Below are positions 1 through 64,000 of a DNA stretch of 64,000 nucleotides, in pieces (positions within the stretch are counted from its first letter, which is position 1; every line of letters starts with the position of its first letter). Source of the stretch: Dehalococcoidia bacterium. GTDB taxonomy: Bacteria; Chloroflexota; Dehalococcoidia; UBA2979. The DNA is taken from the NCBI GenBank assembly GCA_965219085.1, contig OZ244720.1, forward strand, positions 1,888,001-1,952,000, written 5' to 3'. The position numbers were made by a program, and so were the translations under genes. Under the pieces are notes generated by a model. That model saw only the letters and a list, made by a program, of their open reading frames with translations. It was not told the origin of the DNA and did not search any database.

Positions 1-3000
1 CGGCCATCAGCGGTGTCGGGCCTGCATAGTCAGATCCAGCTATTTCGCCGACGCCGAGGGTCACGCCCGGCGCCGTCGGCTCGTCCGACTGGCCATCGGC
101 AGCCTCTGAGACGGCAAATCCGCGGGCTAAGACGCCTCCGATTCTGTCAATGCCACCAGCTTTCAGTACGTTGATATCAGCCCAATCGAAGACGTAGATT
201 TTGCTTCCGACCACGGTGGCGCCTTGCGGAGCCGTCCATACCGGTAGGCCGTTGACGTTACGTGTAATGACCAGGTTGAAATGCCTGGCGCCCGACAGGG
301 AATCGGAGCGCAGGTAGTACGGGTTGATAAAGCCCCCGTTGTTAGATGTGGAGTCGTCCCTGGCGAAAGTCACACCGCGGACGAGGTAGCGATCCGCTGC
401 TCCGACATCGATTGTCCAACCAAGGTTGTCGCCAAGCGACATGATTTCCTGGTCACCCTCACTGGGTTGCGCGAAGTTCGCAGCCAGGATGCCGCTGGTC
501 CGCTGCGAGCCCTTGATGGCCAGGCGCAGCACGCTGCTGGTGCCCGATCTCGCCGTGTCGGAGAGGGTGGCTCCCGTCTCGCCGCCCGCGTCCTCAGCGT
601 CAGACGTCGTCTCCGTGATCGACAGCGAATCGCCGAAATCCGACAGCACGATCCAGTAATTGACGTTCTGGTATGCGAACGCGCCTGCCGGCGCCGTGAA
701 CTCGTTCAGGCCGACCTTGAAGGAGGGCGGGTTCTCGAAGTCGAACAGCTTTGCAGAACGCGATCCCGAGTAGGTGCTCCCAGGAGGGCCTCCGGTCCAC
801 AGGGAGACGCTCAGCCTCGACGGCGCCGGGGGCAGGTCGATCGAGACGCTCGAGATTTCGTAACCCTGGCCGTGCTTCCCCAACTTGAAGCCCATGGCGT
901 ACGTCCCGGTGATCGTCGCCGTGGCCGACGGCGACTGGCCGGTGTTGCCGACCAGCGTCGATGGGGACGGCAATGCGGCCGGTCTGACGAGCGGGCCGAA
1001 CGGCACGCTGGTCACAACCTCCGGGTTGCTGCCCCGGTCCGTGAACGAGACTTGCACCTTGATCAGCTTGCCGAAATCGGCGTCGACCAGCTGGTACCTC
1101 TGTGAGTCGGTACCCACCTCGGTCTCGGCCTCGGTCACGCCATCGACCCGGATCCACTGGTAGGAGAAAACGTAGTTCTCGATGCCAGATTCCGGGCTAC
1201 CGATATAGGGAAGCCCGTCGGCGTCGGCGATGCGCGACGGGTCGGCTGCCAGGATGCCGCCGCCCTCCGCGGAAACCAGGACCACCGGCCGTCCGGTGGC
1301 GTTCGTCACAGTCTGGCGCAGGAACGGGTTCCTCAGCTCGGCCCGGACGATCACGACCACCGTGCTCAGCGAGCGGTTGGCGTCGCTGCTGTCGTCGGTC
1401 GCGGTCAGGGTCAGCGTGATGCGCTGCGTGATCGTCGTCGCCGCCGGCGCGGTCCAGGTGGTGACGAGCGCGGCCGCCTTGGCGAACGTCCCCCCGCCGC
1501 TGCTCGTCCAGGCGTAGCTCAGGCCGTCTCCGTCCGGGTCGGCCGCCGTGCCCTCCAGCGTCACCGTGTCGCCGCCGTCCACGATCGCCGGGGCCGCCGT
1601 GGCCGAGACGCTCGGCGAGCCGCTCGTCGAGGCCGGCACCGTGACCACCACCGTCGCCGTCGCCGTCTCCCTGTGCGCGTCGGTCACCGTGAGGGTCAGC
1701 GTGATCGTCTGGTCGTTGGCCGTCGCCGCCGGCGCGGTCCATTTCGCGCCCGCGACGGCCGCGTCGCTGAACGTCCCGCCGTTGTCGCTGGTCCAGGCGT
1801 AGGTCAGGTCGTCGTTCTCCGGGTCCGTGGCCTGCACGCTCGGCTTCAGCGTCCCCGCGCCCGCCACCACCGCCGTGGCGGGAGTGACCGCCACCACCGC
1901 CGCCCGGTTGCTGCGCGACCAGGCCGAGTGCTGCCGCTGCTTCGAGAGCGGGTAGGCGAAGAGGTCGTCCTCGCCCGAAGCGATCCAGATGATCTCGCCG
2001 TCGGACCACATGCCGCCCACGCTCCCGTGGCTGCTGCGCAACCCAATGTCCTTGCTCGTATCGGTCGTCCCGGCCGGCCAGTTGATCGCAGCGACGGTGT
2101 CATTGGAAGCCGAGAGCGAGGTGGCGATCCACATCGTCGTCCCATCGCCCCACATCGATGCCGCGAGGTTCGCCGACGAGCTGCCCGCACTCACCTGCTT
2201 CGTCGTGTTCCTGGTCAGCGTCCCGCTCGCGGCCCAGTCGTAGGCGAAGAGGGTCGAGTTCCCCACGGTCGACATCCAGAACGTGTCCGCGTCGGCCCAC
2301 AGTCCGTATCCCGACAGCGGCGCGCCGCTGTTGTCAGCCTTGTGCCCCAGCGTGACCCGCGCCGTGCGGTCGCCGAATGTCGCGTCGTCCGCCAGGGAGA
2401 AGCCGTCCAGCGTGATCGGCGTGCCGCTGCCCCCGGACTCGGTCAGCGCCCAGAGCGTGCCCTCGCGGCCCCACAGACCGACGGGACTCGACTGGGCCTC
2501 GGCGACGATGTCCCTGCCGCTGTCGTACAGGCCGTCCGACAGCCTGAACGCCAGGAGCCGGTCGTTGCCTTCGTCGCTGGCCCACAGCGTGGTCCCGTCC
2601 GACCAGAGGCCGTCGACCGGCTCGTATTCGGTCCCGCCGACCGTCAGGTCCACATCAATGTCGCGCAGCGCGGTGCAGGCGTCGTTGGCGAAGTAGATCG
2701 CCCGCACCTGGTAGCGGTACTGCCCGCCCGCTGCGGCCGACCAGTCGAGGTAGCTGCGCGCAGCGGCGTCGACGCAGGTCACCAGCGAGTACGTGTCATT
2801 GCCCGGCGAGCGCATGATCTGGTACTGCAGCACGGTGGTCTCGGCGTTCGTCAGCGTCGGCGCCGACGGCGGGTTCCAGCTCAGTTGCAGCCCAGCGGCC
2901 ATTTCTGTGACCGCCAGGTCCGCCGGTCCCGGCCCACTGCAATCGGGGTCCGTCGTGGGGCAGGTCTGCGTCAACCCACGGCGTACCGGCAGGTCGGCCG

Positions 3001-5011
3001 ATGCCTCGTTGGACTGCTGGCTCTTCACCCCGTCGCGCAGGGCGACGACGCCGTAGGCGTAGCTCGTCCCCACCTGGCTGGCGGTCGCGTCGGTGTAGGT
3101 CGTGTCGGTGTTCGCGGTATCCGCCACCAGGGTGGTCAGCTCTCCCTCACCCACCGCGCGCAGGATCTCGTAGCCCGTGACGCTGTCGGCCTCCTCCGCC
3201 GGGGCCGTCCAGCTCAGCGTGTATCCGCCGCCTTCGACCAGCGTGGCGACGAGGCCGGTGGGGGCGAGGTCAACGGCGTCGTGGGGGAGCTGGACCTGGG
3301 CCTGGCCGGATGCCTGGCTGCGGTCCTCGCCCCGGATGGCCTTCACCTGGTAGGCGTGGGTCTCTCCGGCCTCGGTCGCGGTGGCGTCGCTGTAGGCGGT
3401 GGCTGTGTTCCCGCTGTCGGACACCAGCGTCGTGAACGCTCCCCCGCCCACGGCGCGCAGGATCTCGTAGCCCGTGACGCTATCGGCGTCCTCCGCCGGG
3501 GCGGTCCAGGTCAGTGTGGCTCCGCCCCCGTCGGCCAGCGTGGCGGTCAGACCGGTGGGAGCCAGGTCAACGGGGTCATGGGGGAGCTGGACCTGCGCCT
3601 GGCCGGATGCCTGGCTGCGCTCTTCGCCCCGGATCGCCTTGACCTGGTAGGCGTAGGTCTCGCCGGCCTCGGTGGCGGTGGCGTCGCTGTAGGTCGTGTC
3701 GGTGTTCCCGGTGTCGGCCACCAGGTTCGTCAGCGCTCCCTCGCCCACGGCGCGCAGGATCTCGTAGCCGCTGACGCTACCTGAGTCCTCCGCCGGGGCG
3801 GTCCAGGTCAGGGTCACGCCGCCGCCTTCGACCAGCGTGGCGGTCAGGCCGCTGGGGGCGAGGTCAACGGCGGCAGGAGGCGGGTCGGGCGCGGCCGGGG
3901 TCTGGGCGTCGGCGAAGCTCGACCACTGGCTCGCGCCCTGTGCGTTCACGGCCTTTACCCGATAGACGTACTGGCTCTCCGGCTCTACGGTCTCGTCCGT
4001 GTAGGTGGTGGCCGCCGAGCCGGTGTTGTCCACGAGCGTGATGAACTCGCCGATGGCGTGGATCGAGGTGTCGCGCCGGAACACCTGGTAGTGAGTGATG
4101 GTCGCGTCGCCGGGGTCGTCCCAGGTCAGGCTGACCGAATCATGGGACGCCTCGGAGGAAAGTCCCGTGGGCCGGGCCGGTGCGACCGTGGGGGCAAGGT
4201 CAACGGCGTCATGGGCGAGCTGGACCGTGGCCTGGCCGGATGCCTGGCTGCGCTCTTCGCCCCGGATGGCCTTGACCTGGTAGGCGTAGGTCTCGCCGGC
4301 CTCGGTGGCGGTGGCGTCGCTGTAGGTCGTGTCGGTGTTCCCGGTGTCGGCCACCAGGTTCGTCAGCGCTCCCTCGCCCACGGCGCGCAGGATCTCGTAG
4401 CCGCTGACGCTACCTGAGTCCTCCGCCGGGGCGCTCCAGGTCAGGGTCACGCCGCCGCCTTCGACCAGCGTGGCGATGAGGCCGCTGGGGGCGAGGTCTT
4501 CGGCGGCGGCAGGCGGGTCGGGCGCGGGCAGGGTGGTGGCGCTGGAGAAGCTCGACCACGGACTCGCGCCCGGCGCGTTCACGGCCTTGACGCGGTACAC
4601 GTACTTGTTCTCCGGCTCCACGCTCTCGTCCGTGTAGGTGGTGTCCGCCGAGCCGGTGTTCTCCTCGAGCGTGATGAACTCGCCGATGGCGTGGATCGAG
4701 GTGTCGCGCCGGAACACCTGGTGATGAGTGATGGTCGCGTCGGCGGGGTCGTCCCAGGTCAGGCTGACGGAGTCATGGGACGCCGAGGAGGAGAGTCCCG
4801 TGGGCCGGGCCGGCGGGGCCGTGGCTACGGGCGGCGGCGTGTCGGCGACGGGGTCGGAGCCCTCCTGTTGTCCCCGCACGGGCAGAACACCCGACAGCGC
4901 GCATGCGAAGGCGAGCGCACTCAGGACCAGCGACATGGCGGCCGCGCGAAAGGTCCACCTCCGGCCCACGTTCCGGAAGGCTCGAGCGGCAGCTCGCCGG
5001 CTGGAGGTCAT
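1..5011 (-). CDS. G1: giant secreted FN3-repeat / beta-propeller / Ig-like surface protein (3' end beyond window)
   Basis: Not in the ORF track because it runs off the left edge. ATG at 5011 gives MTSSRRAAARAFRNVGRRWTFRAAAMSLVLSALAFACALSGVLPVRG (signal peptide), then FN3 repeats (VSLTWDDP...YVYRVKAVN; VTLTWTAP...GYEILRAVG), GLWSDGTTLW propeller blades and LTYAWTS Ig/PKD-like units. Same frame confirmed at ATG 893-895. Confidence 0.85.
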   Translation of the reverse strand, partial: MTSSRRAAARAFRNVGRRWTFRAAAMSLVLSALAFACALSGVLPVRGQQEGSDPVADTPPPVATAPPARPTGLSSSASHDSVSLTWDDPADATITHHQVFRRDTSIHAIGEFITLEENTGSADTTYTDESVEPENKYVYRVKAVNAPGASPWSSFSSATTLPAPDPPAAAEDLAPSGLIATLVEGGGVTLTWSAPAEDSGSVSGYEILRAVGEGALTNLVADTGNTDTTYSDATATEAGETYAYQVKAIRGEERSQASGQATVQLAHDAVDLAPTVAPARPTGLSSEASHDSVSLTWDDPGDATITHYQVFRRDTSIHAIGEFITLVDNTGSAATTYTDETVEPESQYVYRVKAVNAQGASQWSSFADAQTPAAPDPPPAAVDLAPSGLTATLVEGGGVTLTWTAPAEDSGSVSGYEILRAVGEGALTNLVADTGNTDTTYSDATATEAGETYAYQVKAIRGEERSQASGQAQVQLPHDPVDLAPTGLTATLADGGGATLTWTAPAEDADSVTGYEILRAVGGGAFTTLVSDSGNTATAYSDATATEAGETHAYQVKAIRGEDRSQASGQAQVQLPHDAVDLAPTGLVATLVEGGGYTLSWTAPAEEADSVTGYEILRAVGEGELTTLVADTANTDTTYTDATASQVGTSYAYGVVALRDGVKSQQSNEASADLPVRRGLTQTCPTTDPDCSGPGPADLAVTEMAAGLQLSWNPPSAPTLTNAETTVLQYQIMRSPGNDTYSLVTCVDAAARSYLDWSAAAGGQYRYQVRAIYFANDACTALRDIDVDLTVGGTEYEPVDGLWSDGTTLWASDEGNDRLLAFRLSDGLYDSGRDIVAEAQSSPVGLWGREGTLWALTESGGSGTPITLDGFSLADDATFGDRTARVTLGHKADNSGAPLSGYGLWADADTFWMSTVGNSTLFAYDWAASGTLTRNTTKQVSAGSSSANLAASMWGDGTTMWIATSLSASNDTVAAINWPAGTTDTSKDIGLRSSHGSVGGMWSDGEIIWIASGEDDLFAYPLSKQRQHSAWSRSNRAAVVAVTPATAVVAGAGTLKPSVQATDPENDDLTYAWTSDNGGTFSDAAVAGAKWTAPAATANDQTITLTLTVTDAHRETATATVVVTVPASTSGSPSVSATAAPAIVDGGDTVTLEGTAADPDGDGLSYAWTSSGGGTFAKAAALVTTWTAPAATTITQRITLTLTATDDSSDANRSLSTVVVIVRAELRNPFLRQTVTNATGRPVVLVSAEGGGILAADPSRIADADGLPYIGSPESGIENYVFSYQWIRVDGVTEAETEVGTDSQRYQLVDADFGKLIKVQVSFTDRGSNPEVVTSVPFGPLVRPAALPSPSTLVGNTGQSPSATATITGTYAMGFKLGKHGQGYEISSVSIDLPPAPSRLSVSLWTGGPPGSTYSGSRSAKLFDFENPPSFKVGLNEFTAPAGAFAYQNVNYWIVLSDFGDSLSITETTSDAEDAGGETGATLSDTARSGTSSVLRLAIKGSQRTSGILAANFAQPSEGDQEIMSLGDNLGWTIDVGAADRYLVRGVTFARDDSTSNNGGFINPYYLRSDSLSGARHFNLVITRNVNGLPVWTAPQGATVVGSKIYVFDWADINVLKAGGIDRIGGVLARGFAVSEAADGQSDEPTAPGVTLGVGEIAGSDYAGPTPLMA
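3568..4815 (-). repeat. Internal ~633-bp tandem duplication of an FN3 pair in G1
   Basis: Shadow ORFs starting at 4058/4691 and ending at 3784/4417 are offset by 633 bp and give near-identical peptides; DNA is visibly near-identical. Confidence 0.8.
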
Positions 5012-5116
5012 GGCGTGCTACGTACTACGTACCGAGCGGCAAACGCCGCGTCGAAGCACGGTCCGCTGGGACGGGACGCGGCCCGGTTGAGGAGGACGAA
5101 AGGGCCAGGAAAAATC

Positions 5117-5130
5117 GGGGGGGGGGGGGG
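5117..5130. repeat. G14 homopolymer in G1 leader
   Basis: aaaatc-G14-taacgta, 106 nt upstream of the G1 ATG. Confidence 0.9.
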
Positions 5131-5204
5131 TAACGTACGTTCTATTGTGACCCGACCGGCGGGCGAGTGAGCGGCCCCGGCGTTCACCCAAGACCCATGC
5201 GCCG

Positions 5205-5415
5205 CTCGTCTCAGGTGCAATGGGACTGGTCTGTCGGGCGCCACGTGAACGCCTTCCCGTAGCACGGGGTCAATTCATGGCAGCATATCACGTAGCCATG
5301 AACGTTCGATGTAAACTAGCCACCTGTTGGTGGCAGGCTGGTGGCGAATCCGCAAAACGTATAGTCGGGGCTGGTTGCTACCTAGTCACAAGGACTACGC
5401 TCAGTAACCGTTTCG
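5205..5415. promoter_or_regulatory. Conserved promoter/leader element P1 (type A distal arm)
   Basis: Minus strand TCGAAC-N16-TATGCT with extended TG; TGGTGGC at 5328 and 5339; plus-strand TATAGT at 5360; 5355-5415 is nearly identical to 23140-23200. Confidence 0.75.
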
Positions 5416-6343
5416 GCGTCTCGATGGCCCGGTTGTACTGACCGAGGTTGTCATGGGCAACCCCCCTAGCGGCGAGGGTCTCCAGATTCTCGGGGTCGAG
5501 GCGCAGTGACCGGTCGAAGTCCTCGATTGCCTCGGCCGGTCTCTCCAGGTTGCCGAGAGCCACGCCCCGGCTGTGGAGGGCGCCAGCATTGTCCGGGTCG
5601 AGCTCCAGGGCAGCATCAAGGTCCCGGAGCGCGCTCTCGTACTCGCCGAGATTGAGCTTCGTGACTGCCCTCGCGCAGCGCGAGAGGTTGCTGAGCGGCT
5701 CCAGCTCGATGGCGCTGTCGAAGTCCTTGATCGCCCGCTCGAAGTCGCCCAGATCGCGGTAGGCGAGGCCCCGGTGGTGGTAGGCGGCCGCGAGACCGGG
5801 CGCGATCTCGATCGCCCCGCTCAGATCCTCCACAGCCCGGGTCGGCTCGCCCAGTTCGGCGTAGGTGTTTCCGCGGTTGTAGTAGGGGTTGGGATCGGCA
5901 GGGTCGGGGCCGATCGCCGTGTCGAAGTCTTTGAGCGCGGCGGCCATGTCGCCTAGCTGGGCGAGGGAGGCGCCGCGGCTGTAGTGCGCGACGGCATCAC
6001 CCGGATCGAGCAGGATGGCAATGTCGTAGTCTCCCACCGCCGCGCGGTGCTCCCCCAGCTCGGCACTGGCATGTCCGCGGTAGTGGTGGGCCTCGGCGTC
6101 ACCGGGCGACAGCTGCAGGGCCTTGCCGAAATCCTCCTTCGCGTGGCGGTCGTCGCCCAGTTGCTGATGCAGCAGCCCCCTCGCGGACAGCGCGGTAGCG
6201 TCGTCGGGATTGGCCGAGTCTGGGTTGAGGCGCTCCAGCAGCTGCCGCAGCTTCTGCTGACTGAAGTCGTCCAGCACCCCATGGTGTCTGCCTTGGTCGT
6301 CCGGTCGCTCCTGCCCGTCCTTGCGGTCGTGCTCTCCACGCAT
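5378..6343 (-). CDS. Tetratricopeptide-repeat protein, 3'-truncated
   Basis: About 8 TPR units (e.g. AYHHRGLAYRDLGDFERAIKDFDSAIELEP). GAGGAG lies 7 nt before ATG 6343. The last repeat breaks at YNRAIE and reads into P1. Confidence 0.8.
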   Translation of the reverse strand: MRGEHDRKDGQERPDDQGRHHGVLDDFSQQKLRQLLERLNPDSANPDDATALSARGLLHQQLGDDRHAKEDFGKALQLSPGDAEAHHYRGHASAELGEHRAAVGDYDIAILLDPGDAVAHYSRGASLAQLGDMAAALKDFDTAIGPDPADPNPYYNRGNTYAELGEPTRAVEDLSGAIEIAPGLAAAYHHRGLAYRDLGDFERAIKDFDSAIELEPLSNLSRCARAVTKLNLGEYESALRDLDAALELDPDNAGALHSRGVALGNLERPAEAIEDFDRSLRLDPENLETLAARGVAHDNLGQYNRAIETPKRLLSVVLVTR

Positions 6344-6781
6344 CGCTGGGCTCCTCTGTCCTTCTCTCGGCGTCCCGCCGCGTCGGGCCGGTCTGTCCCC
6401 ATGGCGCCGCGCCCCCCACTCGTTCTCACGTTGCAGAGTGCGCGCGGCTGCTCTGCCGCGCGGTTGAGAGAAGCGCAGACGGGTACCGACTAGAGGGCCG
6501 CACCCTCGCGTAAGGGGGGGTCCCCGCCTCGGTGCTTCGACTCCAGTGAGGGAACCCACCTCTGGAGCCACGAGGTCGAGTTTCGTCTGCTTCAACGGGC
6601 CTCGGTAAACATGTTCCCTCAATCACCGCCGTATTTCTGCGGGTCCCTCTCCAGGGTGGAACCGCCGCCAATGCTCACCACCGCCCGGTGACCGACACGC
6701 TCGAGCCAGATGCCGGCGAGTGGTCATGCTGCGCTACTCGATTCAATTGCGCGCGAGTGAAGCTCTGCCTGTCAGACACGG

Positions 6782-12126: not shown

Positions 12127-12255
12127 GGGGGCCGCGCGCAGGAACCGCCTCCGGCCTGCGTTCCGGGTGGCTCGTGCGGCGGCATGTCGGCTAGTGGTAT
12201 GCTGCGCAACCCGACCTAAATTGCGCGCTAGTGAAGCTCTGCCTGTCAGACATGG

Positions 12256-18978: not shown

Positions 18979-18979
18979 T

Positions 18980-49060: not shown

Positions 49061-49088
49061 CCCCGCCGGCTGAGGCGGCGCCTCCCGG

Positions 49089-50177: not shown

Positions 50178-50606
50178 GGCCGGTCTCCTACCTCGTCAAG
50201 GCTCTTCCGAGCCGCTCTTGGCCCATCGAGGCCGCTGTTTCAGGGGGCGAGTATCCCCCTTGAGGAGGAGGCCGGCCCTCATGCCATCTCGGCCCCAGCG
50301 CTGGACCCTGCACCTCCCCAGGCGCTGGCCCTGGGCCGGGCAGCTGGCAGCCGCGCTCGCGCGACTACGGGCGTTACCGCTCCCGGCCTGACGCCCCCTC
50401 ACAGCGCCGGCCCGGGTCCGAGGCTCGCGCCAGCACGCCCGCGCACGCCTCGCGCTCCCGCGCGCTCGCGCCCTCAGCGCCCCCGAGCCGCGCTGAGCGA
50501 CGGCTCCTCGCTCCGGCACCGCCCGGCGAACGCCGGCGCACCCGCCGAACTCTCCGCCAGCCGGCATCCCGCCCCCTCAAGCTTCGATCGGTGTATCCGG
50601 GTTTAG

Positions 50607-51784: not shown

Positions 51785-51785
51785 C

Positions 51786-52967: not shown

Positions 52968-52970
52968 GCT

Positions 52971-54543: not shown

Positions 54544-54545
54544 AG

Positions 54546-54696
54546 CAGGGTGATGAAAAACCCCTGAAGTCGGGAAACGGAGCGTTTCGCGGCACTGCGG
54601 CGCTCGGAAAAACCCTTGAAAACAAAGGGTTTCTCGGTAGCCGCACGCAGTCGATTCCGGGCCGAGACCGTTCCAGACGACCTTTTCAGCACCCTG
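54546..54696. mobile_element. 151-bp MITE
   Basis: IRs cagggtgatgaaaa / ttttcagcaccctg; internal hairpin aaacccttg..caaagggttt; right flank CTAG overlaps the G6 stop codon. Confidence 0.7.
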
Positions 54697-57600
54697 CTAG
54701 TTCCCCGCCGCCCTGTCCCCGCCGGCGTCGCCCATGGGCGGCTGGGTGCTCTTGGCGATTAGTGGCGTGATGGACGTCAGGCCGTCGGCGAACAACTCCC
54801 TGAACTCGCCGTTCACAGAGTCCGGCGCTTCGAGGATGTAGGCGACGAACTCACCGTCGTGCAGGGCGTAGAGGGCCGTGATGTCCGAGCTCTGCGCGCA
54901 GACCACGAGAGTATCGACGCTACCGCCCTCGTAGATGACCAGGCTGAAGCCCTCGACGATGTCGCCGCGCAGGCACTCGGGCCACGGCAGCAGGGCACCG
55001 TCGCCGAGGTTCGGGTCGGTTGAAGGGGGTCCGTTGCTCCCGGCGACGAGCGGCGTGACCGGGAGAACGCCATCGGCGAACAGCTCGACGAAGGGCCGGT
55101 TCACGAACTCCGGCGCTCCGAGGATGTACGAGACGTGGACGCCGCCGTGCAGCGCGTAGAGGGCCGCGACATCGCGGCTCTCCGCGCACCGGGCCAGGTC
55201 CTCGACGCTGCCGCCCTCATAGACGACGAGGCTGAAGCCCTCGGCGATGGCGCCGCGCAGGCAGTGCGTCCAGGGCTCCGGCGTCGCCTCCCGCTCCGGG
55301 TCTCCCAGCACCACGCGGTAGCTGCGCCTGCGGCTGCCGTCCGCCGATGTGACAGTGACCGTGATCTCACCGACGCCCTCCAGCGCCACCTGGTAGCCGT
55401 TCGCTTCGTCCCCGTCGGCGTCGACCGGATCGATCTCGACCACTGCGCGTCGCTGCACCGCGGATGCCTCGACCGCTGTCTCAGTCACGCCCTCGCCCGC
55501 ACTGCCCTCGTAGTCGATCCTGCCGGGGTCGAACTCCCCGAAGTCGACGCCGCTCAGGGTCAGCGATGCGAGGCGGGCGTCGATGGCGTCCGGCATGTTG
55601 TAGCTGTAGACCTTGTCGTCGCTCTCGTCGGCCACGTACATGACGTCGCCGTCGGACCAGATGCCGCGCGGGCTGTTGTTACTAGCCCGGCTCAGCACCG
55701 TGTTGGGGAACTCCTCGTCGCGGTTCCGATCGAGTTCGTCCTCGCCGTCTTCGCCTGCCTTGAGCCGGTAGGCGAAGAGCCGCTTCTCGCCATGGTCGGA
55801 GACCCAGAAGGTGACGCCGTCGAAGAAGAGGCCGTGGGGATCGCCGTTGGCAGAGGCGAGGGCGTACTCGGCGAGCTGCTCGCCGCCTGCGAGGTCGTAG
55901 GCGAAGAGACTGTCCTTCCCCCCATCCAGCACCCACATCGTCTCGCCGTCGGACCAGATGCCGCGGGGGTCGGCGTTGCGGTCGTCGAGTTCGATGTCGC
56001 GTTCGGGGAGGCGCTCGCCGGTCTCGAGGTCGTGGGCGAAGAGGCGCTCCTGGCCGCTGTCGGAGACCCAGAGGACCTGGCGGTCGGACCAGACGCCGCG
56101 GGGAGCGCGGTTGCGCTCGTCGAGCTCGAACTCGCGCTCCTCGATGCGTTCGCCGCTCTGGAGGTCGTAAGCGTAGATGGCGTCGTCGGCGCCATCGCCG
56201 TTCTCGGCGATCCAGAGCACGGCGCCGTCGGACCAGGCGCCGGTGGGCGAGTCGTGGGTCGAGTCGAGCGCCTCGATGTCGCGCTTCACCGTCCACTCGA
56301 AGTCGACGATGCTCGGCGAGGGCCCGGACGGTCCCCCGCCGCCACCACCGCCTCCGCCACCACCGCCTCCACCGCCGCCGCCGGGATCACCGCCGCCGCC
56401 GGTGGTGATCGCCGTGCCGGCCGTGACGGTGATGGTCAGGTCGGTGCTCGCTGCCCCGCCCTTCTGGTCGTCGGCGGTGACTGTGGCCGTGTACGTGGGC
56501 CGCGTGGCGGCGTCCAGCACCGTCCCGGGACGGACCGTGACCTGGCCCGTGTGCTCCTCGATCTCGAAGTCCACAGCAGCGGCGCCGGTCAGCCGGTAGG
56601 CGAGTGTGTCGGCGTCTACGTCCGTGGCGGTGACCGGCGCGCCGACATTAGCCCCGGGCTGTGCGTTCTCGGAGACAGAGCGCTCGGCCGTGGCTGCACG
56701 GAACTCCGGGGGGTCGTTCACCGACCGAATGGTGACCGAGACCGTGCCCTCATCGGAGAACATCCCGTCTGAGACGGTGTAGGTGAAGGCGTCGGCGCCG
56801 TGGTAGTTGGGCTTCGGCGTGTAGCTGATGGTGTCGTCCGTCTCCACCGTCGCCAGGCCGTTGCCGGGCCAGTTGCGCAAGCTGACGGTCAGGTCGTCGT
56901 TCTCGGGGTCGTCGTCGTTGGTGAGGACATCGATGGTCACCGCCTCGTCCTCGTCGGTAGCGCCCGTGTCGTCGACCGCCTCCGGGGCCTCGTTCACGTC
57001 GGTGACGGTGATGTCGACGACGATGCTGTCGGTGACGTTGGATGAGTCGGTGGCGGTGACGGTCACGGAGTATGCGACTCCCGATTCGAAATCCAGCAGG
57101 GTGCCCTCACGCACCCGGATCTGGCCGCTGCCGCCGTCGACGGTGAAGGAGTCCACGTCGCCGGCAGTGAGGGCGTAGGTCAGCGCGCCGGCGTCGGTGG
57201 CGGTGACCGGTTCGCCGACTGCGGCTCCCGGGGCCGAGTTCTCGTCGACGGAGCGCGTCGTGCTCGCGCCGGGGAACTGTGGGGGGCTGTTCGTCTGCGG
57301 CGGCTCCTGCGTCCGGTGGTCCGAGTCTTCCCGCACGCTCTTGCCGTCGCCCTCCCCGTCGCCGTACGAGGCGGTAGCCCGCAGGTAGTGGTTGAGGTCG
57401 GCCTCGACCGGCGCGTAGGAGCGAGTCCCGGCCCCGCCGATGGCCGACCAGGTGCTTCGGTTCTGCGAGCGCTCCCACGTCCATGAGCGGCCGGTGATGC
57501 CTCCGTCCGGATCCGTCAGGCTCGCCGTGAGGACGGCTCCTACCTGCGGCTGCTCTGAGGACAGGCGGAGCGTTCCCGGTTCTTCCTCGTTCGTGACGGT

Positions 57601-60459
57601 GACCGTCACCGCATGCGCGACCGTGTTCGCGCCGTCCGAGGCGCGCACCGTCACCGAGTACTCATTGTTCCCGCCCGCGTCCGTGGGGGACTCGAAATTC
57701 GGGGTCACGACGAGGCTGAGCACTCCGTTGCTGAATGTGAAGTCGTCGCGGTCCGTTCCCGCGAGCGTCTCCCAGATGACCGTGCCACCCTCGGGGTCCG
57801 TGGCGGTGTAGGTGGCGACCGTCTTTGTGTCGTTCTCGGCATAGGGAACGCTTGCGGGCCCGCTGATGACCGGGGGCTCGTTCACGTTCGTGACGGTGAC
57901 GGTCACGTCCAGCGCGCCCGTCAAGCCACCGTCGGAGGCGCGCAGCGTGACCTCGTACCGGTTGTCCCGGTTGGCGTCGGCCCGCGCGTCGAAGTCGGGC
58001 ACTGCCGTGAAGCTCAAGTCGCCGGCATCGGTTAACTCGAAGTGGCTGCGGTCGGGGCCGGAGAGGGTGCTCCAACTCGTCGTGGCTTCTTCCGGGTCCG
58101 TGGCACGGTAGCGCCCCACGTAGTCGGTGCTGTTCTCCTCGATGGTGACGTGGGCCTCGCCCGTCACCTCCGGGGCTTCGGGGACATCGGTGATGGTGAT
58201 AGTCACGTCGAGAGTGCCCGTCAGGCTGCCGTCGGAGGCGCGTAGCGTGATCTGGTACACGTTCTGACCTTCGTGGTCGGGCGCTGCCTTGAACGTGAGC
58301 ACGCCGCTCGCGCTGAGTTCGAAGGCGCCGCTGTCGGGTCCCGCGAGCGGCAGCCAGGTTACCGGGCCGCCCTCGGGGTCGGTGGCGCTGTAGTTGCCGA
58401 TATCATGCGTGCCACCCTCCTCGTAGTTCACGCTGGAGGGGCCGACGACGACCGGCGCCTCGTTTGGCGGAGTCTCATTCTTCACGGCTCTGTCCGTGAG
58501 CGCCGGTGCCTTGTGCCCGGTGCTCCTCTTGGCGTGCCGAATCGCATTCGTGCCGGGCGTGTAACTCACCGTCACCGCCTGACCCTCCATCACCGCCGAA
58601 GCCAGCGCGAGGGTCACTGAGTCTTCGTTGATCGCGACCGTGGAAACATCCCGCCCGGAGTCATCAACCTTCACCCGAAAGGAATCAGCCGGGGGCAGTA
58701 ACGCTTGGTCCAGACTCCCGACATACGAAAGCGTCAGGTCGGTGCCGTTCACTGTTGCATCCAGGAGGGTGGGCCGCCATCGCGGACGTGGCTCGGAAGC
58801 AGTCGCGGTGACCGACGACCACCGAATCTCCTGCCCTTTCTCTGGCATTGAGTCCAGAGCCGCCTGCAACGTTGTCCGGGCGGCGCTCGACTCCTCGTCG
58901 TCACCAGGCAGCGGTCGTAGTTCATGACGGTCTGCAGACACGTCAAAGAGCTCTCCCGGGCTGTAGAGCTTGTAGCGCTTGTCGCGCGCGTAGGACGACT
59001 CCGGGTGCGCAAAGGGCGAGTCGAATTCACTCACGTACGGCTGTGGGAAGTAGTAGGTGTATATCCAGTCGCGGGGCTGGCCGGGATTGCCTTGCAGCCT
59101 TTCCCAGAAGCTCACGCCGTCGAGCTCGTCACGGTTGGGGATTGTGAGGCCTGCCGCATCGGCCAGGGTCGGCAGGAAGTCGGTGAAGTCGATCAGGTCG
59201 TCGATGACCTGGCCACCCGCCGCCCCTGGAACCAACACGATCAGGGGTACGTGCGTCCCTCCGTCGGTTGGCATGCCCTTGTCCCCATGGATCGTCTCGC
59301 CATCGAGATGCGAAACTTTGGACGCCGGAGTCCCATTGTCGGAAGTGAACAGGAATACGGTGTTGTCGAGCAGCCCCAGGGCCTCAAGCTTGTCGTAGAC
59401 GCGCCCGACGTTGTAGTCGAGGTAGGCAACCATGTCCTCGAAGACGCACTGTGCGTCGTCGGCGTCGGCGCATTGCGCGATCGGGGGGAGGGAGTCAAAC
59501 GGATCGTGGGGAAGGAGCATCGAGTAGTAGGCGAAGAACGGCCTATTCCGGTTTGACTCGATAAAGTCCTGAAGGAAGCCCACCACTTCGTCTGGTCCGT
59601 AGTCGCTGCGGGCGTAATCGATGACCTGCCCGTCGCATTCGAATTTGGGCCTCCAGTAGCGCCTACTTGGGTTGTCCGAGTACCACAAACAGTACGTGTC
59701 GAATCCGGACTCGTCCGCCGCTACGCCGCTCAGGAAGTTGGTCCTCCCCTGCAGTTGCCACTTTCCGGCGATGGCGGTCGCGTATCCGGCGTCGCCAAAC
59801 AAGTCGGCGATCGTGTATTCGCCAGGGAGCAGCGTCCTCCTATCCACGTAGTTCCGGACATTGCTCATGCCCGTCATCAGGGCTACCCGGCTCGGGGTGG
59901 TGCCCGGCTTGGAGTAGGCGTGGGTGAAACGCACGCCGGCGGCGGCGATTCCGTCGAGCCGCGGCGTCCTGTACTGCGTGCTTCCATAGGCGCCGAATAG
60001 CTCGTATCCGCCCTCGTCCGCCACGATGAGAACAACGTTTGGGTCGTGGACGTCCGCTACGGTCACGGTGACTTCGATCGTGGCGCTGGCCCCGGCCGAA
60101 TCGGTGGCCCTCACGACCACGGTGTGCTCCGGCTTGCTCTCATGGTCCAGGGTGGTGTCGTTGGCCACCTGGAGTTGCCCGTCAGCGTTAATGCTGAAGG
60201 AGCCGCTGTCCGGCCCCTCAAGCGAGTAGGTGAGGGAAGTGTCCTCGACGTCCGTGGCTACGACCGGCTCGCCCACGACTGTACCAGCAGCTGAGTTCTC
60301 GGCGACTGAGCGGGTCGTCGCCATGGCGGTGAACGTCGGTGCCTGGTTCACCGGGGGCGTCTGGGCGTGAGCGGTTCGGGATACGGCGAGTAGGGCCGTG
60401 ACTAAGGCCAAAGCGTAGAGCCACGAGAGATTGGATGTGCGGGAGGGGCGCCTAGGCAT
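54697..60459 (-). CDS. G6: sulfatase-fold + SwmB-like + cadherin-repeat surface protein with C-terminal module
   Basis: ATG 60459 with signal (ALALVTALLAVSRTAHA); PNVVLIVAD, TPSRVALMTG, GKWQL, PHDP, FTSDNG; cadherin repeats; poly-Gly linker. Confidence 0.9.
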   Translation of the reverse strand: MPRRPSRTSNLSWLYALALVTALLAVSRTAHAQTPPVNQAPTFTAMATTRSVAENSAAGTVVGEPVVATDVEDTSLTYSLEGPDSGSFSINADGQLQVANDTTLDHESKPEHTVVVRATDSAGASATIEVTVTVADVHDPNVVLIVADEGGYELFGAYGSTQYRTPRLDGIAAAGVRFTHAYSKPGTTPSRVALMTGMSNVRNYVDRRTLLPGEYTIADLFGDAGYATAIAGKWQLQGRTNFLSGVAADESGFDTYCLWYSDNPSRRYWRPKFECDGQVIDYARSDYGPDEVVGFLQDFIESNRNRPFFAYYSMLLPHDPFDSLPPIAQCADADDAQCVFEDMVAYLDYNVGRVYDKLEALGLLDNTVFLFTSDNGTPASKVSHLDGETIHGDKGMPTDGGTHVPLIVLVPGAAGGQVIDDLIDFTDFLPTLADAAGLTIPNRDELDGVSFWERLQGNPGQPRDWIYTYYFPQPYVSEFDSPFAHPESSYARDKRYKLYSPGELFDVSADRHELRPLPGDDEESSAARTTLQAALDSMPEKGQEIRWSSVTATASEPRPRWRPTLLDATVNGTDLTLSYVGSLDQALLPPADSFRVKVDDSGRDVSTVAINEDSVTLALASAVMEGQAVTVSYTPGTNAIRHAKRSTGHKAPALTDRAVKNETPPNEAPVVVGPSSVNYEEGGTHDIGNYSATDPEGGPVTWLPLAGPDSGAFELSASGVLTFKAAPDHEGQNVYQITLRASDGSLTGTLDVTITITDVPEAPEVTGEAHVTIEENSTDYVGRYRATDPEEATTSWSTLSGPDRSHFELTDAGDLSFTAVPDFDARADANRDNRYEVTLRASDGGLTGALDVTVTVTNVNEPPVISGPASVPYAENDTKTVATYTATDPEGGTVIWETLAGTDRDDFTFSNGVLSLVVTPNFESPTDAGGNNEYSVTVRASDGANTVAHAVTVTVTNEEEPGTLRLSSEQPQVGAVLTASLTDPDGGITGRSWTWERSQNRSTWSAIGGAGTRSYAPVEADLNHYLRATASYGDGEGDGKSVREDSDHRTQEPPQTNSPPQFPGASTTRSVDENSAPGAAVGEPVTATDAGALTYALTAGDVDSFTVDGGSGQIRVREGTLLDFESGVAYSVTVTATDSSNVTDSIVVDITVTDVNEAPEAVDDTGATDEDEAVTIDVLTNDDDPENDDLTVSLRNWPGNGLATVETDDTISYTPKPNYHGADAFTYTVSDGMFSDEGTVSVTIRSVNDPPEFRAATAERSVSENAQPGANVGAPVTATDVDADTLAYRLTGAAAVDFEIEEHTGQVTVRPGTVLDAATRPTYTATVTADDQKGGAASTDLTITVTAGTAITTGGGGDPGGGGGGGGGGGGGGGGGPSGPSPSIVDFEWTVKRDIEALDSTHDSPTGAWSDGAVLWIAENGDGADDAIYAYDLQSGERIEEREFELDERNRAPRGVWSDRQVLWVSDSGQERLFAHDLETGERLPERDIELDDRNADPRGIWSDGETMWVLDGGKDSLFAYDLAGGEQLAEYALASANGDPHGLFFDGVTFWVSDHGEKRLFAYRLKAGEDGEDELDRNRDEEFPNTVLSRASNNSPRGIWSDGDVMYVADESDDKVYSYNMPDAIDARLASLTLSGVDFGEFDPGRIDYEGSAGEGVTETAVEASAVQRRAVVEIDPVDADGDEANGYQVALEGVGEITVTVTSADGSRRRSYRVVLGDPEREATPEPWTHCLRGAIAEGFSLVVYEGGSVEDLARCAESRDVAALYALHGGVHVSYILGAPEFVNRPFVELFADGVLPVTPLVAGSNGPPSTDPNLGDGALLPWPECLRGDIVEGFSLVIYEGGSVDTLVVCAQSSDITALYALHDGEFVAYILEAPDSVNGEFRELFADGLTSITPLIAKSTQPPMGDAGGDRAAGN

Positions 60460-60711
60460 GCGCCCGCCGGCGGGCGTGCCGTCCCCTGAGGCCACTGCGG
60501 CCATGAGATGAGCGCGTGGGGTGGTCCGCTTCGCCCGCACTGCGGCAGGAGAGTTCCCGAAGGGTGGGCCTAGGGTTGGGCATGACCGTGGTCCTCGCGG
60601 TGTTCTTGGGTAGGCGCGGGTTGCACGGTGGGCAGACCGCCGAACAGGCGAGACTGCCGCGCGTTGTTGCTGGTGCTGTCATTGGCCGACAAGAGCGTCG
60701 CTTGCAGCCGG

Positions 60712-61005
60712 ACTAACTCTTCGGGACGCCGAAGTGCTCTCCCACCTCCCAGGAGTGGACGAGTCCCTCGGCTTGGGCCTCTTCGGTGTCGATGAGCAAC
60801 GCATGGGCGAAGTCCTTTGCCACTCGTTCGTAACGCTCGGTGAGATCCGTGTGGGTTCGCAGCCGGAGTGTGTTTGCCTGGGTGGAGGAGCCCGTGGGCG
60901 ATGCCGTGGGCGATCACCCGCCGCTGCCACTCGGGATCCACCCGCTCGGCTACGAGCACAACACCAACTGCTTGAGCACCTTGGGCGGCCACGGACGCAC
61001 CTCGA
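60712..61005 (-). pseudogene. Decayed ImmA/IrrE-family metallopeptidase fragment
   Basis: WQRRVIAHGIAHGLLH (frameshift) YERVAKDFAHALLID...VGEHFGVP, resembling R.T.AHELGH..LH / E.EA..FA..LL / LA..FGV. Confidence 0.5.
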
Positions 61006-61014
61006 GCTGGACCT

Positions 61015-63994
61015 GTACACCACGTCGCTGCGGATGTAGCGCAGGTCGTAGCCGGTGATTGCCGATGCGCCAGCGTCACCGGGGGCGGACCACGCGACGG
61101 TGAGCGAGGTTGCGGCTGTTCCCACGGAGGTGATCGCCGGATGGCCGGGCGCGTACCCGTGCCCGTATACCGTGATCCTCCACTTCTTGAGCGTTCCCGA
61201 GGCTCCCCCCGCCAGTTGTTGATGCGCAACGTCCACTGCCCGGCGGGATCCTCGCCGAGGTGGCGGGCGGAGCCGAAACGGAACGGCTCTCGCAGGGGTC
61301 GGTACACGTAACCGAGTCGCGTTGGACGGGTCGTGAGGTGCGACACAGCCCCCGAGGGCGAAATCAGTTCGAACTCCAGGGTTCGGAAGCTGGTGTGGTC
61401 GATCGCGATGTCGACCGCGACGAACTCGACGAACCCCACGTGGCCGCCCTCGATGGACACCTGCGTGCTCGCCCGGGAGCTGATGGTGGTGGGGAGCGCC
61501 AGGTCGGCATCGTCGGACGTCACCATCACCGAACGCCAGGCCGGAGCGGTGGTCCAGCCGTCGGCCAGATCGACCGCAGCGCCGGCATCGACGGTGCCGA
61601 AGCCGTACCAGTGGTTGAACTGGTAGTAGTCCGTCGTCGAGCCGTACTGCAGCGCCCCTTGCTCCCAGCCCGAATCCGCTGCGCTGTCTTGCGCGCGGAG
61701 GCGGCGAGGATCAGCTTCACGTCCCGCCAGCTGAGATCGGGGTTGGCGGCGCGCATCAGCGCCACCACCCCGGACACGATCGGCGCGGAGGCGGACGTGC
61801 CGGTGAACGAACCCGTGTACCACCCCCTGTGGGTCGTCGCGATGCCCAGCGCGCCGTCGCCGCCGGGAGCGCAGACCCAGAGATTGGCGCCCCGCTCCGA
61901 GTACCAGGTGCGGACATCGCCGAGGGTGATGGCGCAGACGGCGACGACTCCATAGTGGTTCACGTATCCGTCGAGGTTCCCGTTGTCGTGCAGGCCCCCG
62001 TTGCCATTGGCCCAGACGTAGACGATTCCCTTCCCGCCGAAGCCCTGCGTGATGCCCGTCTCGATCGCCTGCTCCCAGATTCCAGAAACGGGGGAGGGAT
62101 GCCCGTTGTCGCCGGAGCCCCAGCTGTTATTGGACACAGCGGTGTCTGCCAGGTCACGAGTCATGGCGGGGGCTGCATAGAACTGGATGCCCGAGTGGTG
62201 CAGGATCGCGTTGTACCCGTAGATGCTGGCCCGGGGCGCGACTCCCCGCATGCCCTGGTCGTCGTCGCGGGCCGCGATCAGGCCGGCCACATTCGTCCCG
62301 TGCGTGGATTGGCCCGGGCGGAAGATGTCGTTGATTTGGTTCGTGTCGTGGTAGTCGTGGTTGCGATCGTGGCGCACGTTGGGGCTCAGGTCGGGGTGCC
62401 CGTGATTCATGCCCGTATCGACCACCGCCACGTTCACACCCGCACCCATCGTGGTCCCCCACGCCTCCAGCACGTTGCTGTCCTGGCCCGCCCCTCCGGG
62501 CCGCAGCGCGCCCGTGTTGTGCAGGTGCCACTGGCAACCGGCCAGGGGGTCGCTCATGGGCGATGTCACGGCGCTGCACTCCTCGTGGAACGCCTGCCGG
62601 TGGGTTTCAACCCCGGCCTGAAGGAAATACGCGCCGCCGGAGCCGGGCGCCCCGTCTTCGCTGATCCGGATGCTGTAGGTACCGGCGCTGAGAAAGGCCA
62701 GGCGAGAGACGGCCGTAAACCCACCCTCTAAGGAGGAGTAGGCGTACACCTCGTTCCCCTGATCATCGAGGATGTCCCCCGTGATTGACACCGAGGAGTC
62801 CGCGTACGCCCGCATCAGGAGCCACGTGTCCCCCTCCACCGTCAGGCGGAAGTAGTTCTGGCTGGTGCCGGCATCCACCCGTCCCGCCACAACCGACAGG
62901 AGACCGAGGGGCCGTGCCGTGGCGGCGCTGCCGCCCCTGTCGGGGACCTCCTCGAAGAAGAGCGTGTACGCCCCTGTTGCAGAGGAGGAGTACGCCCGCA
63001 CCTTGACGTAGTAGGTGCCCGCCGCCAGCTCGCGCCTGATCAGGAAGCTCTTCGTCAGTCCATGGATTTCGTTGTCGTCGCTCTCGTCGCCGATTTGATT
63101 GCCGTCCGAGTCCAGCAACGCACCGACCGTGTCCAGCCTGTCAGAGGAGGGGGCCGTGATCCAGACATCGGTGGTGCTGGCGAGCTCGAACGTGAAGTAG
63201 TTGACATCTCCCCCGTTTGCGATCCGCCCCGGCGCCGGCTCGCCCGACGCGACGGTTGTGGCGCTCTCCTGGGTCCCCCCGGGGGCCGGCGCTGGGCGAA
63301 TCTCGAGCGTGTACGGCCCACTCGCCTCCTCAAAGCCATCCACGCCGATGTAATACGTTCCGTGTTCAAGCTGCTGGCGGATGGCGAAGTTCAACCGGCC
63401 GGAGGGGTATCCGCCGTCGTCCCTGAACCTCGTCACGTTCGGGCCCACGAGTTCCCCGCGGGTGTCGAAGTCGCTCACGGTGTAGATCCAGAGATCGACC
63501 TGCTCGGAGAGGACAAGCTGGAAAACATCCCAGTCGTCCGTGCCGTCGATGCGCGCTTCGATGGAGGAGTCCAGCGCGACGACCGTTGCGGCCGACGCCC
63601 TGTCGCCGTGATCCGTCGTCGTTTGAGCGAAGGTGTCCGACCAGGGGCCTGCACCGATGGCGTTGACCGCACGCACCTGCACGTCGTACCCCGTGCTGTC
63701 CCGCAGGCCGCTGACCGTGTGCTGGAGTGAGGTCAGGCTGCTCACACCGGTCTCGACCTCCCAGTTCGCGTCCGCCGTGTCGGCCGCATCACTCAGGATG
63801 TAGCGAAGGTCATAGGAGGTGAGCGCCTCCCCGCCCGTGTCGGAGGGCGCGGTCCAGGCGACCGTGAGGGTGGAAGCGCCGGCGGTCACCGAGCTGATTG
63901 CCGGGGCCGCCGGTGCGGTCTGGCCCCGCACCCGTTCCGCCGCCACACCGAGTGCGAGCAGGGTGCAGACCGCGAGCAGGGCTGCTCGCTTCAC
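61015..63994 (-). pseudogene. G7: FN3-PPC-S8 protease-P domain surface protein, paralog of the G5 N-half; two frameshifts and 3' truncation
   Basis: Signal MKRAALLAVCTLLALGVAA; VDTG, THGT, GTSASAP; G5-homologous sequence continues in ORFs 60570..61823 and 60679..61236 (shifts near 61688 and 61215) and stops after GYDLRYIRSD. Confidence 0.82.
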
Positions 63995-64000
63995 CGCAGG

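Follow-up and report, generated by a model that had tools for sequence, protein, structure and literature searches.

Homopolymer phase variation is textbook biology for pathogens. In Neisseria, pilC is switched on and off at translation by a homopolymer, and in Mycoplasma hyorhinis the vlp genes are a multigene family in which the 5′ region and signal peptide are conserved while the repetitive bodies vary, each member being switched by a homopolymer in its promoter. Unlike the genes reported here, those of vlp encode small lipoproteins of a low-GC organism, and their tract is a poly(A) between −35 and −10. A likeness is also found in the fim genes of Bordetella, a GC-rich genome, which share a promoter "fim box" and a C stretch of 7 to 22; the C run differs between paralogs and species and has interrupted forms such as C6TC3 (PMC1891110). 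The fim2, fim3, fimX and fimN genes resemble those of our locus in being paralogous surface-protein genes with a conserved box and a C run whose length varies among paralogs, and in their two-component activator, which is BvgAS there and only a candidate, a fused kinase-regulator, here. The two cases differ in that the Bordetella genes encode fimbrial subunits and ours giant multi-domain proteins, that the tract here stands 105-250 nt from the start codon, with another putative promoter about 125-150 nt upstream of the tract, and that our candidate regulator is a fused kinase and OmpR-type protein rather than BvgA. For our locus, an effect on transcription is putative.

The proteins themselves have described counterparts in sponge symbionts. 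Sponge-associated genomes show an enrichment of genes with cadherin and fibronectin III domains, those with fn3 being especially numerous in Chloroflexota (PMC8163846, in the part that deals with these domains). The domain content of our genes agrees with this; that part of the paper gives domain counts and does not speak of clustered giant genes, of leaders or a tail held in common, or of homopolymer tracts (PMC8163846). A literature search found no report of homopolymer phase variation in Chloroflexota or sponge symbionts.

The DNA analysed here, which we call the window, is a stretch of 64,000 nt from the genome of an uncultured Dehalococcoidia bacterium, assembled as a single 3.3-Mb contig. 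An earlier note on the window had read it as a candidate system, a jointly regulated and recombining array of genes for giant surface proteins, and did not recognise it as described. Instead, the window belongs to a family of giant secreted proteins that is spread over the genome in about six clusters, of which it is one, and is no self-contained new system: the C-terminal tail of these proteins is found across these clusters, leader and tail combine in differing ways, and both sponge-symbiont adhesion-domain proteins and homopolymer phase variation are known kinds. With slightly more conviction than doubt, we consider the best explanation to be that the cluster belongs to a multigene family, specific to its lineage, whose giant secreted proteins resemble adhesins and are under leader and C-stretch control. 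The features of the window are as follows.

2 to 5011, minus strand: g1, the N-terminal 1670 aa of an 8471-aa secreted giant ORF, with an N-terminal signal peptide, fn3 repeats and RGI_lyase-like, Big_9 and choice-of-anchor R domains.
5117 to 5130, minus strand: C14 stretch of g1, between the box ATAGAACGTACGTTA and GATTTTT; the g1 ATG follows 105 nt downstream.
5207 to 5396, minus strand: leader (class L1) of g1, with the putative promoter TCGAAC-16-TATGCT at 5282-5309.
6928 to 12126, minus strand: g2, a 1732-aa secreted protein with fn3, Cadherin-like and RCC1-like domains; it has no leader of its own and begins 130 bp after g3.
12256 to 18576, minus strand: g3, a 2106-aa secreted protein with C-terminal RCC1-like and Cadherin-like regions and no tail.
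18525 to 18686, minus strand: L1 leader of g3, lacking the C stretch; putative promoter at 18575-18602.
18809 to 18940, minus strand: eighth remnant, a tail end and the first bases of a helicase relic.
19393 to 21162, minus strand: protein with Schlafen AlbA_2 and HATPase_c_4 domains, formerly read as the regulator.
22362 to 22832, minus strand: DoxX-family gene, the first gene after the truncated leader copy.
23051 to 23179, minus strand: truncated L1 leader (model positions 4-131), putative promoter at 23065-23092, divergent from the kinase-regulator gene.
23214 to 25658, plus strand: fused GAF-PAS-HisKA-HATPase-REC-Trans_reg_C protein, a one-protein two-component system with an OmpR-type DNA-binding end.
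26054 to 26662, minus strand: 3′ flank of g4, in which the last ~180 aa of a DUF6094 methyltransferase-ResIII-Helicase_C gene survive as a relic.
26640 to 35387, minus strand: g4, up to 2915 aa, with choice-of-anchor R, cadherin and beta-propeller repeats; its start may be the ATG at 35387, ahead of the C stretch, or a GTG that follows the stretch after about 34 nt.
35246 to 35259, minus strand: C14 stretch of g4, after the box CTAGCACATACGTA and before ATTTTG.
35316 to 35506, minus strand: L1 leader of g4, with the putative promoter CTGAAC-16-TACGTT at 35391-35418.
35578 to 36166, minus strand: 3′ flank of g5, a helicase-gene relic ending in a hairpin with a 15-bp stem (35632-35666).
36167 to 47050, minus strand: g5, 3627 aa, with S8 peptidase, P-domain, fn3, Spondin_N, cadherin, GSDH and Big_9.
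47227 to 47415, minus strand: L1 leader of g5, lacking the C stretch; putative promoter at 47299-47326.
47431 to 54549: five insertion sequences (DDE_Tnp_1_4, IS110, IS5-like, IS630-like and DUF772-type), each multicopy in the genome.
54697 to 60540, minus strand: g6, 1947 aa, with cadherin, sulfatase and Big_9 domains, without a leader of its own.
60570 to 64000, minus strand: g7, a decayed and frameshifted S8 peptidase/P-domain gene.

The eight co-oriented giant genes or remnants counted earlier are recovered as seven minus-strand genes or pieces, g1 to g7, and the eighth remnant. Sequence comparison, domain hits and signal peptides agree in presenting them as modular, mosaic genes for secreted proteins with common 5′ and 3′ modules. 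Pfam domains in the giant genes of the window (fn3, cadherin, Big_9, S8, sulfatase, GSDH) were recognised at E-values down to 1e-53 and signal peptides are predicted on the giant proteins; secreted proteins rich in cadherin and fn3 domains, the mark of sponge-symbiont adhesion-domain proteins, are thus present. A conserved C-terminal module of about 1.6 kb, with the tail, is common to g4, g5 and g6 at 81-86% DNA identity, and in g4 it occupies 26643-28301, with the tandem tail at 26643-27200. Two conserved C-terminal ends had been proposed, of which the tail-bearing module of g4-g6 stands; the "second end", that of g2 and g3, is not distinct from it, consisting of an RCC1-like region and the same Cadherin-like module minus the tail. 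A 1-nt deletion has truncated g2 by about 57 C-terminal codons, whose relic is found at 6710-6927. The g3 region (12061-18525) is 98.9% identical over 6.5 kb to genome positions 310075-316539, g5 matches genes at 298 kb and 3.10 Mb of the genome with 88-91% identity over 6-10 kb, and gene order differs among clusters. By these comparisons the family genes are mosaics of shared modules, and the family has grown by segmental duplication and exchange between paralogs.

Genome-wide, the same tandem Cys-containing tail closes 26 ORFs of at least 900 aa in about six clusters (51 matches to the tail query in the whole genome). Each of the two copies in the tail is an alpha/beta domain some 90 aa long that contains two conserved Cys. 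The tail profile matched 49 of 60 other genomes from the same taxonomic family and gave one marginal match only in a 300-genome sample of the rest of the phylum, a distribution by which the tail appears restricted to one family of Dehalococcoidia. The structure model is confident (pLDDT 89.5); Foldseek returned nothing from the PDB at E ≤0.001, and with VIA-align the top Z among 48,161 chains was 3.9, with no related fold. Pfam matches on the tail were sub-threshold noise only, and it belongs to no Pfam or NCBIfam family. A sorting-signal tail of LPXTG, PEP-CTERM or T9SS type was rejected on account of the polar end (...SEGPPEAN) with no hydrophobic stretch, and NCBIfam sorting-signal models found none in the last 553 aa. 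Non-covalent C-terminal modules such as SLH and CWB2 are likewise small repeated domains on diverse secreted proteins of one lineage, but the tail has no sequence or fold match to them. The common anchor of the earlier note, with neither a Pfam or NCBIfam family nor a solved-fold match behind it, stays conjectural; the tandem tail may act as a common handle keeping the proteins at the cell envelope.

The conserved upstream leader fared better. An nhmmer profile built from four window copies gave 11 genome matches (E 1e-55 to 6e-5), five of them in the window at the positions listed and one more, that of g7, 1.3 kb beyond its end. The leader was thought to repeat with every gene; there are five copies in the window, but g2 and g6 are without one. 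Leader (11 matches) and tail (26 ORFs) both recur genome-wide, but not in a fixed pairing: a recognised L1 or L2 promoter stands ahead of only about 12 of the 26 tail genes, leaving 14 without a recognised leader, and L1 is found ahead of tail-bearing genes, tail-less genes and one DoxX gene. L2 is a second leader class, heading the plus-strand giant-gene clusters, and between them the two classes precede many family members.

The L1 leader carries what we infer to be a sigma-70-like promoter. The pattern nTGAAn, a spacer of 16-17 nt and TAnnnT is kept in all nine L1 copies examined while the middle positions vary; the putative −35 and −10, read from the pattern of conservation, share no more than about 6 of their 12 positions with the consensus, and a generic consensus sigma-70 scan returned no promoter in two L1 regions (34900-36300 and 4900-5500). 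The L2 motif, in which three TTCAC repeats precede a putative promoter (TTCACG-N5-TTCAY-N16-TTCACG, then CTGACA-17-AAGAAT), was found at 11 sites, each of them upstream of a giant gene, and at none in the reversed-genome control, and five of the six TTCAC-N6-TTCAC sites in the genome lie within these leaders. L1 has a comparable layout, yCAyC-N6-yCAyC upstream of the −35. Direct repeats about 11 bp apart just upstream of the −35, as in OmpR/PhoB-type regulons, are therefore present in both classes. The shared leader resembles a common control region, much as the "common on-switch" of the earlier note would have it, yet its conservation may reflect shared descent rather than selection, because the copies are 75-80% alike, like the adjacent coding modules. 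A structured RNA in the L1 5′ region was also considered: RNAalifold on 7 of 9 full copies gave only 6 pairs, and the idea was dropped because none of them shows compensatory change. An Rfam scan of the whole window at gathering thresholds gave no match. BLAST of a 321-nt leader against 40 other genomes found only the tract context, in one genome.

In both leader classes a conserved box is followed by a run of 5 to 22 C's, and the homopolymers of the earlier note are present in the window as two 14-base C runs (G on the plus strand). Only 18 homopolymers of at least 8 bases exist in the whole genome, and six of the seven C/G runs of at least 12 come after the box TAG[AC]AC..A[CT]GT[AT] upstream of giant genes; in all, the box or a near variant of it precedes eleven tract sites, at nine of which it matches TAG/TGG-[AC]AC..A[CT]GT[AT]. 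A C tract beside a conserved box in the 5′ control region of surface-protein genes is also the arrangement of fim. At homologous sites the tract is deleted or reads CTCCTCCCCT, C5, C6, C6, C7, C13, C14, C14, C17, C19 or C22, and two leader copies identical over 300 nt upstream and 218 nt downstream differ as C22 and C19. As earlier proposed, the tracts appear hypermutable, their length varying between otherwise identical paralogous copies and seeming, between paralogs, to change much faster than the flanks. These length differences come from paralogs; the sole public contig across a tract, of 581 nt, has the same C14 as g4 in the assembly, and long-read assembly may misstate homopolymer lengths. 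Of the six L1 copies that lie within the window or next to it, three lack the tract.

What lies around the tract bears on how it might act. The ATTTT(T/G) after it is a possible −10, at 19-28 nt from the box for C13-22, which is too long a spacer for an unassisted promoter; the better-conserved putative promoter lies farther upstream. In another species of the genus a C17 is found in a different sequence context 50 nt before the start of a 3041-aa tail-bearing gene, and elsewhere in the taxonomic family, too, secreted genes carry C tracts at their 5′ ends. A pattern scan for the box and C10 in the contigs of other genomes gave one match, in a Phototrophicaceae MAG, and pattern scans of metagenome contigs gave none. 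Rho is encoded in this genome.

A dedicated regulator behind the same promoter was claimed for the Schlafen/AlbA gene, which has no leader directly upstream. The truncated leader precedes the DoxX gene, and the Schlafen/AlbA gene lies 1.9 kb further, past an IS110-like fragment. With no paralog in the genome and no adjoining leader, the AlbA_2 protein was rejected as regulator of the array. A better candidate is the fused histidine kinase-response regulator encoded next to the truncated leader. All four other close copies of it in the genome lie inside giant-gene clusters; two are full-length (52-58% identity), each divergent from a giant-gene promoter, and two are broken. In other species of the genus, 23 of 37 matches to the kinase-regulator share a contig with a tail gene, 7 of them within 5 kb of it, 12 within 15 kb and 5 more than 30 kb away; it is also found far from any tail gene. 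Co-duplication with neighbouring genes may be a simple alternative explanation of this co-location.

Taken together, these data suggest variation of the cell surface through giant genes, as in some pathogens. It is possible, if less likely than not, that this Dehalococcoidia bacterium, as a putative symbiont, has a contingency system like those of mucosal pathogens. At least 11 slipping box and C-stretch modules would then turn single adhesin genes on, off or to a level, in addition to a common kinase-regulator switch, and so provide a stochastic, combinatorial display of about 26 tail-held giant surface proteins. In the explanation that we prefer, the fused kinase-response regulators encoded in the clusters would read the direct repeats 11 bp apart that precede the leader promoters, forming a common environmental switch for the giant genes. 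To this the C stretch would add, via strand slippage, a heritable, reversible, gene-by-gene setting. The stretch might do so by serving as spacer within a second promoter that depends on an activator, like that of the Bordetella fim genes, or as a C-rich part of a long untranslated leader, such as a site where Rho loads. Should the C stretches indeed act as switches, a mutualist from a very old animal-microbe partnership would vary its surface in the manner of a pathogen, which would be relevant to how sponges tell symbionts from food and to phage pressure. Parts of this proposal are open to direct testing: the two promoter families with response-regulator-type repeats, the one candidate regulator, and the unnamed, family-restricted tail domain with its confident model and no known fold.

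The same observations could come from an ordinary expanded paralog family without dedicated control, whose shared parts are the passive result of recent duplication and gene conversion, and we regard this as possible, if rather doubtful. The C stretches would then be neutral slippage-prone sequence or assembly noise, and the genes would be expressed or decay independently. The leader identity, near that of the neighbouring coding modules, fits such a history, as do the hitch-hiking gene relic in the 3′ flank, the decayed members g2 and g7, the 7 kb of the array occupied by insertion sequences, the RNA structure without covariation support and the empty consensus promoter scan. It accounts poorly, however, for one and the same box and C-stretch module in two otherwise unrelated leader classes, for the near confinement of long C runs to the box context in a genome with so few homopolymers, or for −35 and −10 positions that are invariant amid varying neighbours. 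The triple-repeat promoter motif, with 11 occurrences to none in the control, kinase-regulator paralogs adjoining giant genes in several species, and the recurrence of 5′ C tracts in secreted genes elsewhere in the taxonomic family also argue against it. A misassembly of dispersed repeats, which is scarcely credible, would draw on the many repeats of 0.2-2 kb and the one of 6.5 kb at 98.9% identity; most repeats, however, are just 75-90% identical, the genome is a single contig, and public-run contigs match the junctions exactly at 18496-18941, 22740-23229, 25592-26195 and 35157-35737. These contigs, compared over 17001-37000, are short, come from 4 of the 22 runs containing the locus, with one across a tract, and the runs may include the source sample. 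All 22 runs have the locus in contigs and none listed is an RNA run; a low-share run outside these four bears the label sponge metagenome.

Leader and C-stretch control, which we prefer, must also be set against two other forms of switching. A translational on/off switch would place the start upstream of the tract, so that a one-base change shifts the frame of signal peptide and protein. In g4 the ORF from an ATG 128 nt upstream does stay in frame through the C14 into the main ORF, the other two frames stopping 25 and 33 nt past the tract, and in g1 an upstream ORF crosses the tract and ends at a TGA overlapping the main ATG. However, an open frame of about 90 codons has, by our own estimate, a chance of roughly 1 in 7 at this GC content, the g4 version would place about 110 residues before the signal peptide, and the would-be leader start codon varies among copies (GTG, GGG or ATC). 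All four long-tract L2 genes have stops in every frame, +20 to +252 nt after the tract, so no frame through these tracts joins the main ORF, which starts 236-250 nt downstream, and a frame switch is rejected for L2 genes; the main ATG of the L2 gene at 691 kb has a good GGAGGA ribosome site. We hold this switch to be improbable overall. Cassette-type antigenic variation, in which one expressed gene is rewritten from silent promoterless cassettes as in pilE/pilS or vlsE, and which the "recombining array" of the earlier note implies, is less probable still. Similarity among members is mosaic and the shared flanks could steer recombination, but every full member comes with a start codon and signal peptide of its own, many of them also with a leader, and the bodies are unlike in domain composition. 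Apart from decayed remnants no promoterless partial cassettes were seen, and the locus lacks the pairing of one expression site with silent cassettes that defines those systems.

The 3′ flank, earlier listed as a part of the repeating unit, is indeed conserved, but as a gene relic and no designed part. It corresponds to residues 1094-1272 of a 1275-aa methyltransferase-helicase ORF (74% identity, E 2e-72), that is, to the last ~180 codons of that gene. The junction of tail, helicase-gene relic and leader was copied as one block. The intergenic blocks upstream of g3 and g4, said to be colinear along their length, are so in three pieces (18525-18694 with 35339-35513, 75%; 18761-18791 with 35547-35577, 87%; 18809-18940 with 36063-36194, 83%), and the second block has about 485 bp that the first lacks. 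The 16-mer pointed out at 18761 and 35547 occurs at these two sites of the window only, even with up to 2 mismatches allowed, compared to 0.09 expected by chance.

Seven giant-protein genes, all on the minus strand, fill about 70% of the window (68% GC, within a 3.3-Mb genome in a single contig), and five insertion sequences, together spanning 7 kb, interrupt their array. The features discussed here are as follows.

2-5011 (-), g1, giant gene, the start of an 8471-aa ORF
6928-12126 (-), g2, giant gene shortened at its end by ~57 codons through a 1-nt deletion
12256-18576 (-), g3, giant gene
19393-21162 (-), Schlafen/AlbA gene
22362-22832 (-), DoxX gene
23051-23179 (-), truncated leader of class L1
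23214-25658, fused GAF-PAS-kinase-receiver-OmpR-type protein
26640-35387 (-), g4, giant gene
36167-47050 (-), g5, giant gene
54697-60540 (-), g6, giant gene
60570-64000 (-), g7, giant gene, frameshifted

The giant proteins carry signal peptides and a mixture of fn3, cadherin, Big_9, subtilase, sulfatase, GSDH, RCC1-like and beta-propeller modules. An earlier note had read them as a co-regulated, modular and recombining array; its observation is partly confirmed and its interpretation partly supported. What is present here belongs to known kinds, an adhesin-like multigene family and putative homopolymer contingency loci. For the C stretch described below, the nearest established parallel is the pairing of fim box and C run at the fimbrial genes of Bordetella (PMC1891110, in excerpt). 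The enrichment of cadherin and fn3 in sponge symbionts has already been published (PMC8163846, in excerpt). In the literature we found no description of such loci for the phylum and lifestyle of this organism.

Common 5' and 3' modules emerge from comparison of the window with itself and with the rest of the genome. In the self-comparison, g4, g5 and g6 share a C-terminal module of ~530 aa, which runs from a Gly linker through a beta-propeller and a Cadherin-like domain (PF12733) to a tandem of ~90-aa Cys-containing domains, the tail. The proposed second C-terminal end, found in g2 and g3, is an RCC1-like region plus this Cadherin-like domain, with no tail. Genome-wide, 26 ORFs of at least 900 aa terminate in the tail, in about six clusters; its profile matched 49 of 60 further genomes from the same family and gave a single, marginal match among 300 genomes sampled from the rest of the phylum. 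The tail has no family in Pfam or NCBIfam, and its confident AlphaFold model (pLDDT 89.5) found no fold match among solved structures. In g4, ~11 Gly codons at 28261-28308 (-) join the variable body to the conserved module, and the short contigs from public runs tend to end there.

The 3' flank is conserved, as had been claimed, but corresponds to the final ~180 codons of a DUF6094 methyltransferase-ResIII-Helicase_C gene (74% identity, E 2e-72, to a full 1275-aa ORF at genome 719395-723222) and is closed by a strong hairpin. It is a gene relic that was copied jointly with the tail and the leader that follows, and this joint copying implies that the family spread by duplicating whole junctions. 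Recent exchange between copies is evident in a 6.5-kb copy at genome 310 kb (98.9% identity, breaking off inside the leader) and in other tracts of 6-10 kb at 88-91% identity in the rest-of-genome comparison.

A profile search with the upstream block found 11 copies of L1, the leader class of the window's giant genes, five of them in the window. The elements nTGAAn and TAnnnT, separated by a 16-17 nt spacer, are kept in all nine copies examined while other positions vary; a palindrome, TGAA-NN-TTCA, overlies the putative -35, with the direct repeat yCAyC-N6-yCAyC further upstream. A generic promoter scan made no call at the L1 site and an RNA fold in L1 showed no covariation, so that the promoter is a putative one. 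The second class, L2, heads plus-strand clusters elsewhere; its TTCAC repeats, three in number and in helical phase, are followed by CTGACA-17-AAGAAT, and all 11 occurrences precede giant genes, with none in a reversed-genome control. Leader and tail are associated yet separable: L1 stands before genes with the tail (g4, g5) and without it (g3 and the copy of g3), and also before g1, the DoxX gene and a pseudogene. Both g2 and g6 have no leader and probably rely on the upstream gene.

Only 18 homopolymers of at least 8 bases occur in the genome, and six of the seven C/G runs of at least 12 stand upstream of giant genes, preceded by the box TAG[AC]AC..A[CT]GT[AT] and followed by (G)ATTTT. This module is common to L1 and L2, which are otherwise dissimilar. 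At the homologous site the tract is deleted, interrupted, or C5, C6, C6, C7, C13, C14, C14, C17, C19 or C22, the C22 and C19 standing in two copies with identical flanks (300 + 218 bases). Another species has a C17 situated 50 nt ahead of a 3041-aa tail-bearing gene, and other C runs of at least 12 in the family precede secreted-protein genes. As to how the tract might act, an effect on the reading frame is a possibility for g4 and g1; in four L2 genes the tract is unable to change the protein reading frame. Because the tract lies ~125-150 nt downstream of the putative promoter, in a leader that can reach ~425 nt, and because the genome encodes Rho, action at the leader level would be an equal alternative to a promoter effect of the Bordetella fim type.

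Just upstream of the g1 ATG, ~25 nt (4990-5015, -) hold stop codons in all three frames, and a TGA overlapping the ATG ends an ~85-codon ORF that reads through the C14 tract; this overlap may be chance or translational coupling. Degenerate tract modules at genome 345377-345407 (C7, then GA and T9) and 357337 (C6) precede a giant gene apparently broken by an IS110 copy, and look like decayed switches. The exact box + C10 pattern recurred in only one other species representative, a Phototrophicaceae MAG of a different class of Chloroflexota (contig range 2270217-2272640). At G014:C1:821800-838000, a C19 tract is immediately ahead of the signal peptide of a ~550-aa secreted protein, with a serine-recombinase-like ORF ~3.5 kb further downstream.

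The Schlafen/AlbA gene, taken earlier for a regulator behind the same promoter, does not fit that role: it lies 1.9 kb from the truncated leader, beyond the DoxX gene and an IS110 fragment, and has no paralog in the genome. The fused kinase protein is a better candidate. Four further close copies exist, two of them full-length and two broken, and all are inside giant-gene clusters, both full-length ones divergent from an inferred giant-gene promoter; of 37 matches in congeneric species, 23 share a contig with a tail gene, 7 within 5 kb and 12 within 15 kb. This tie is one of co-location, and the paralogs may have been duplicated jointly with their neighbours.

The interval between the DoxX and Schlafen/AlbA genes looks rearranged, with an inverted IS110-like fragment (22119-22339, 81% identity to 49371-49603) and a second repeat (21585-21976, 81% identity to genome 850804-851195). 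A 414-aa TPR protein (5378-6622, -) is encoded between g2 and the leader of g1; its 96.6% identical copy at genome 3108510-3109590 adjoins insertion sequences and a further giant gene with the tail.
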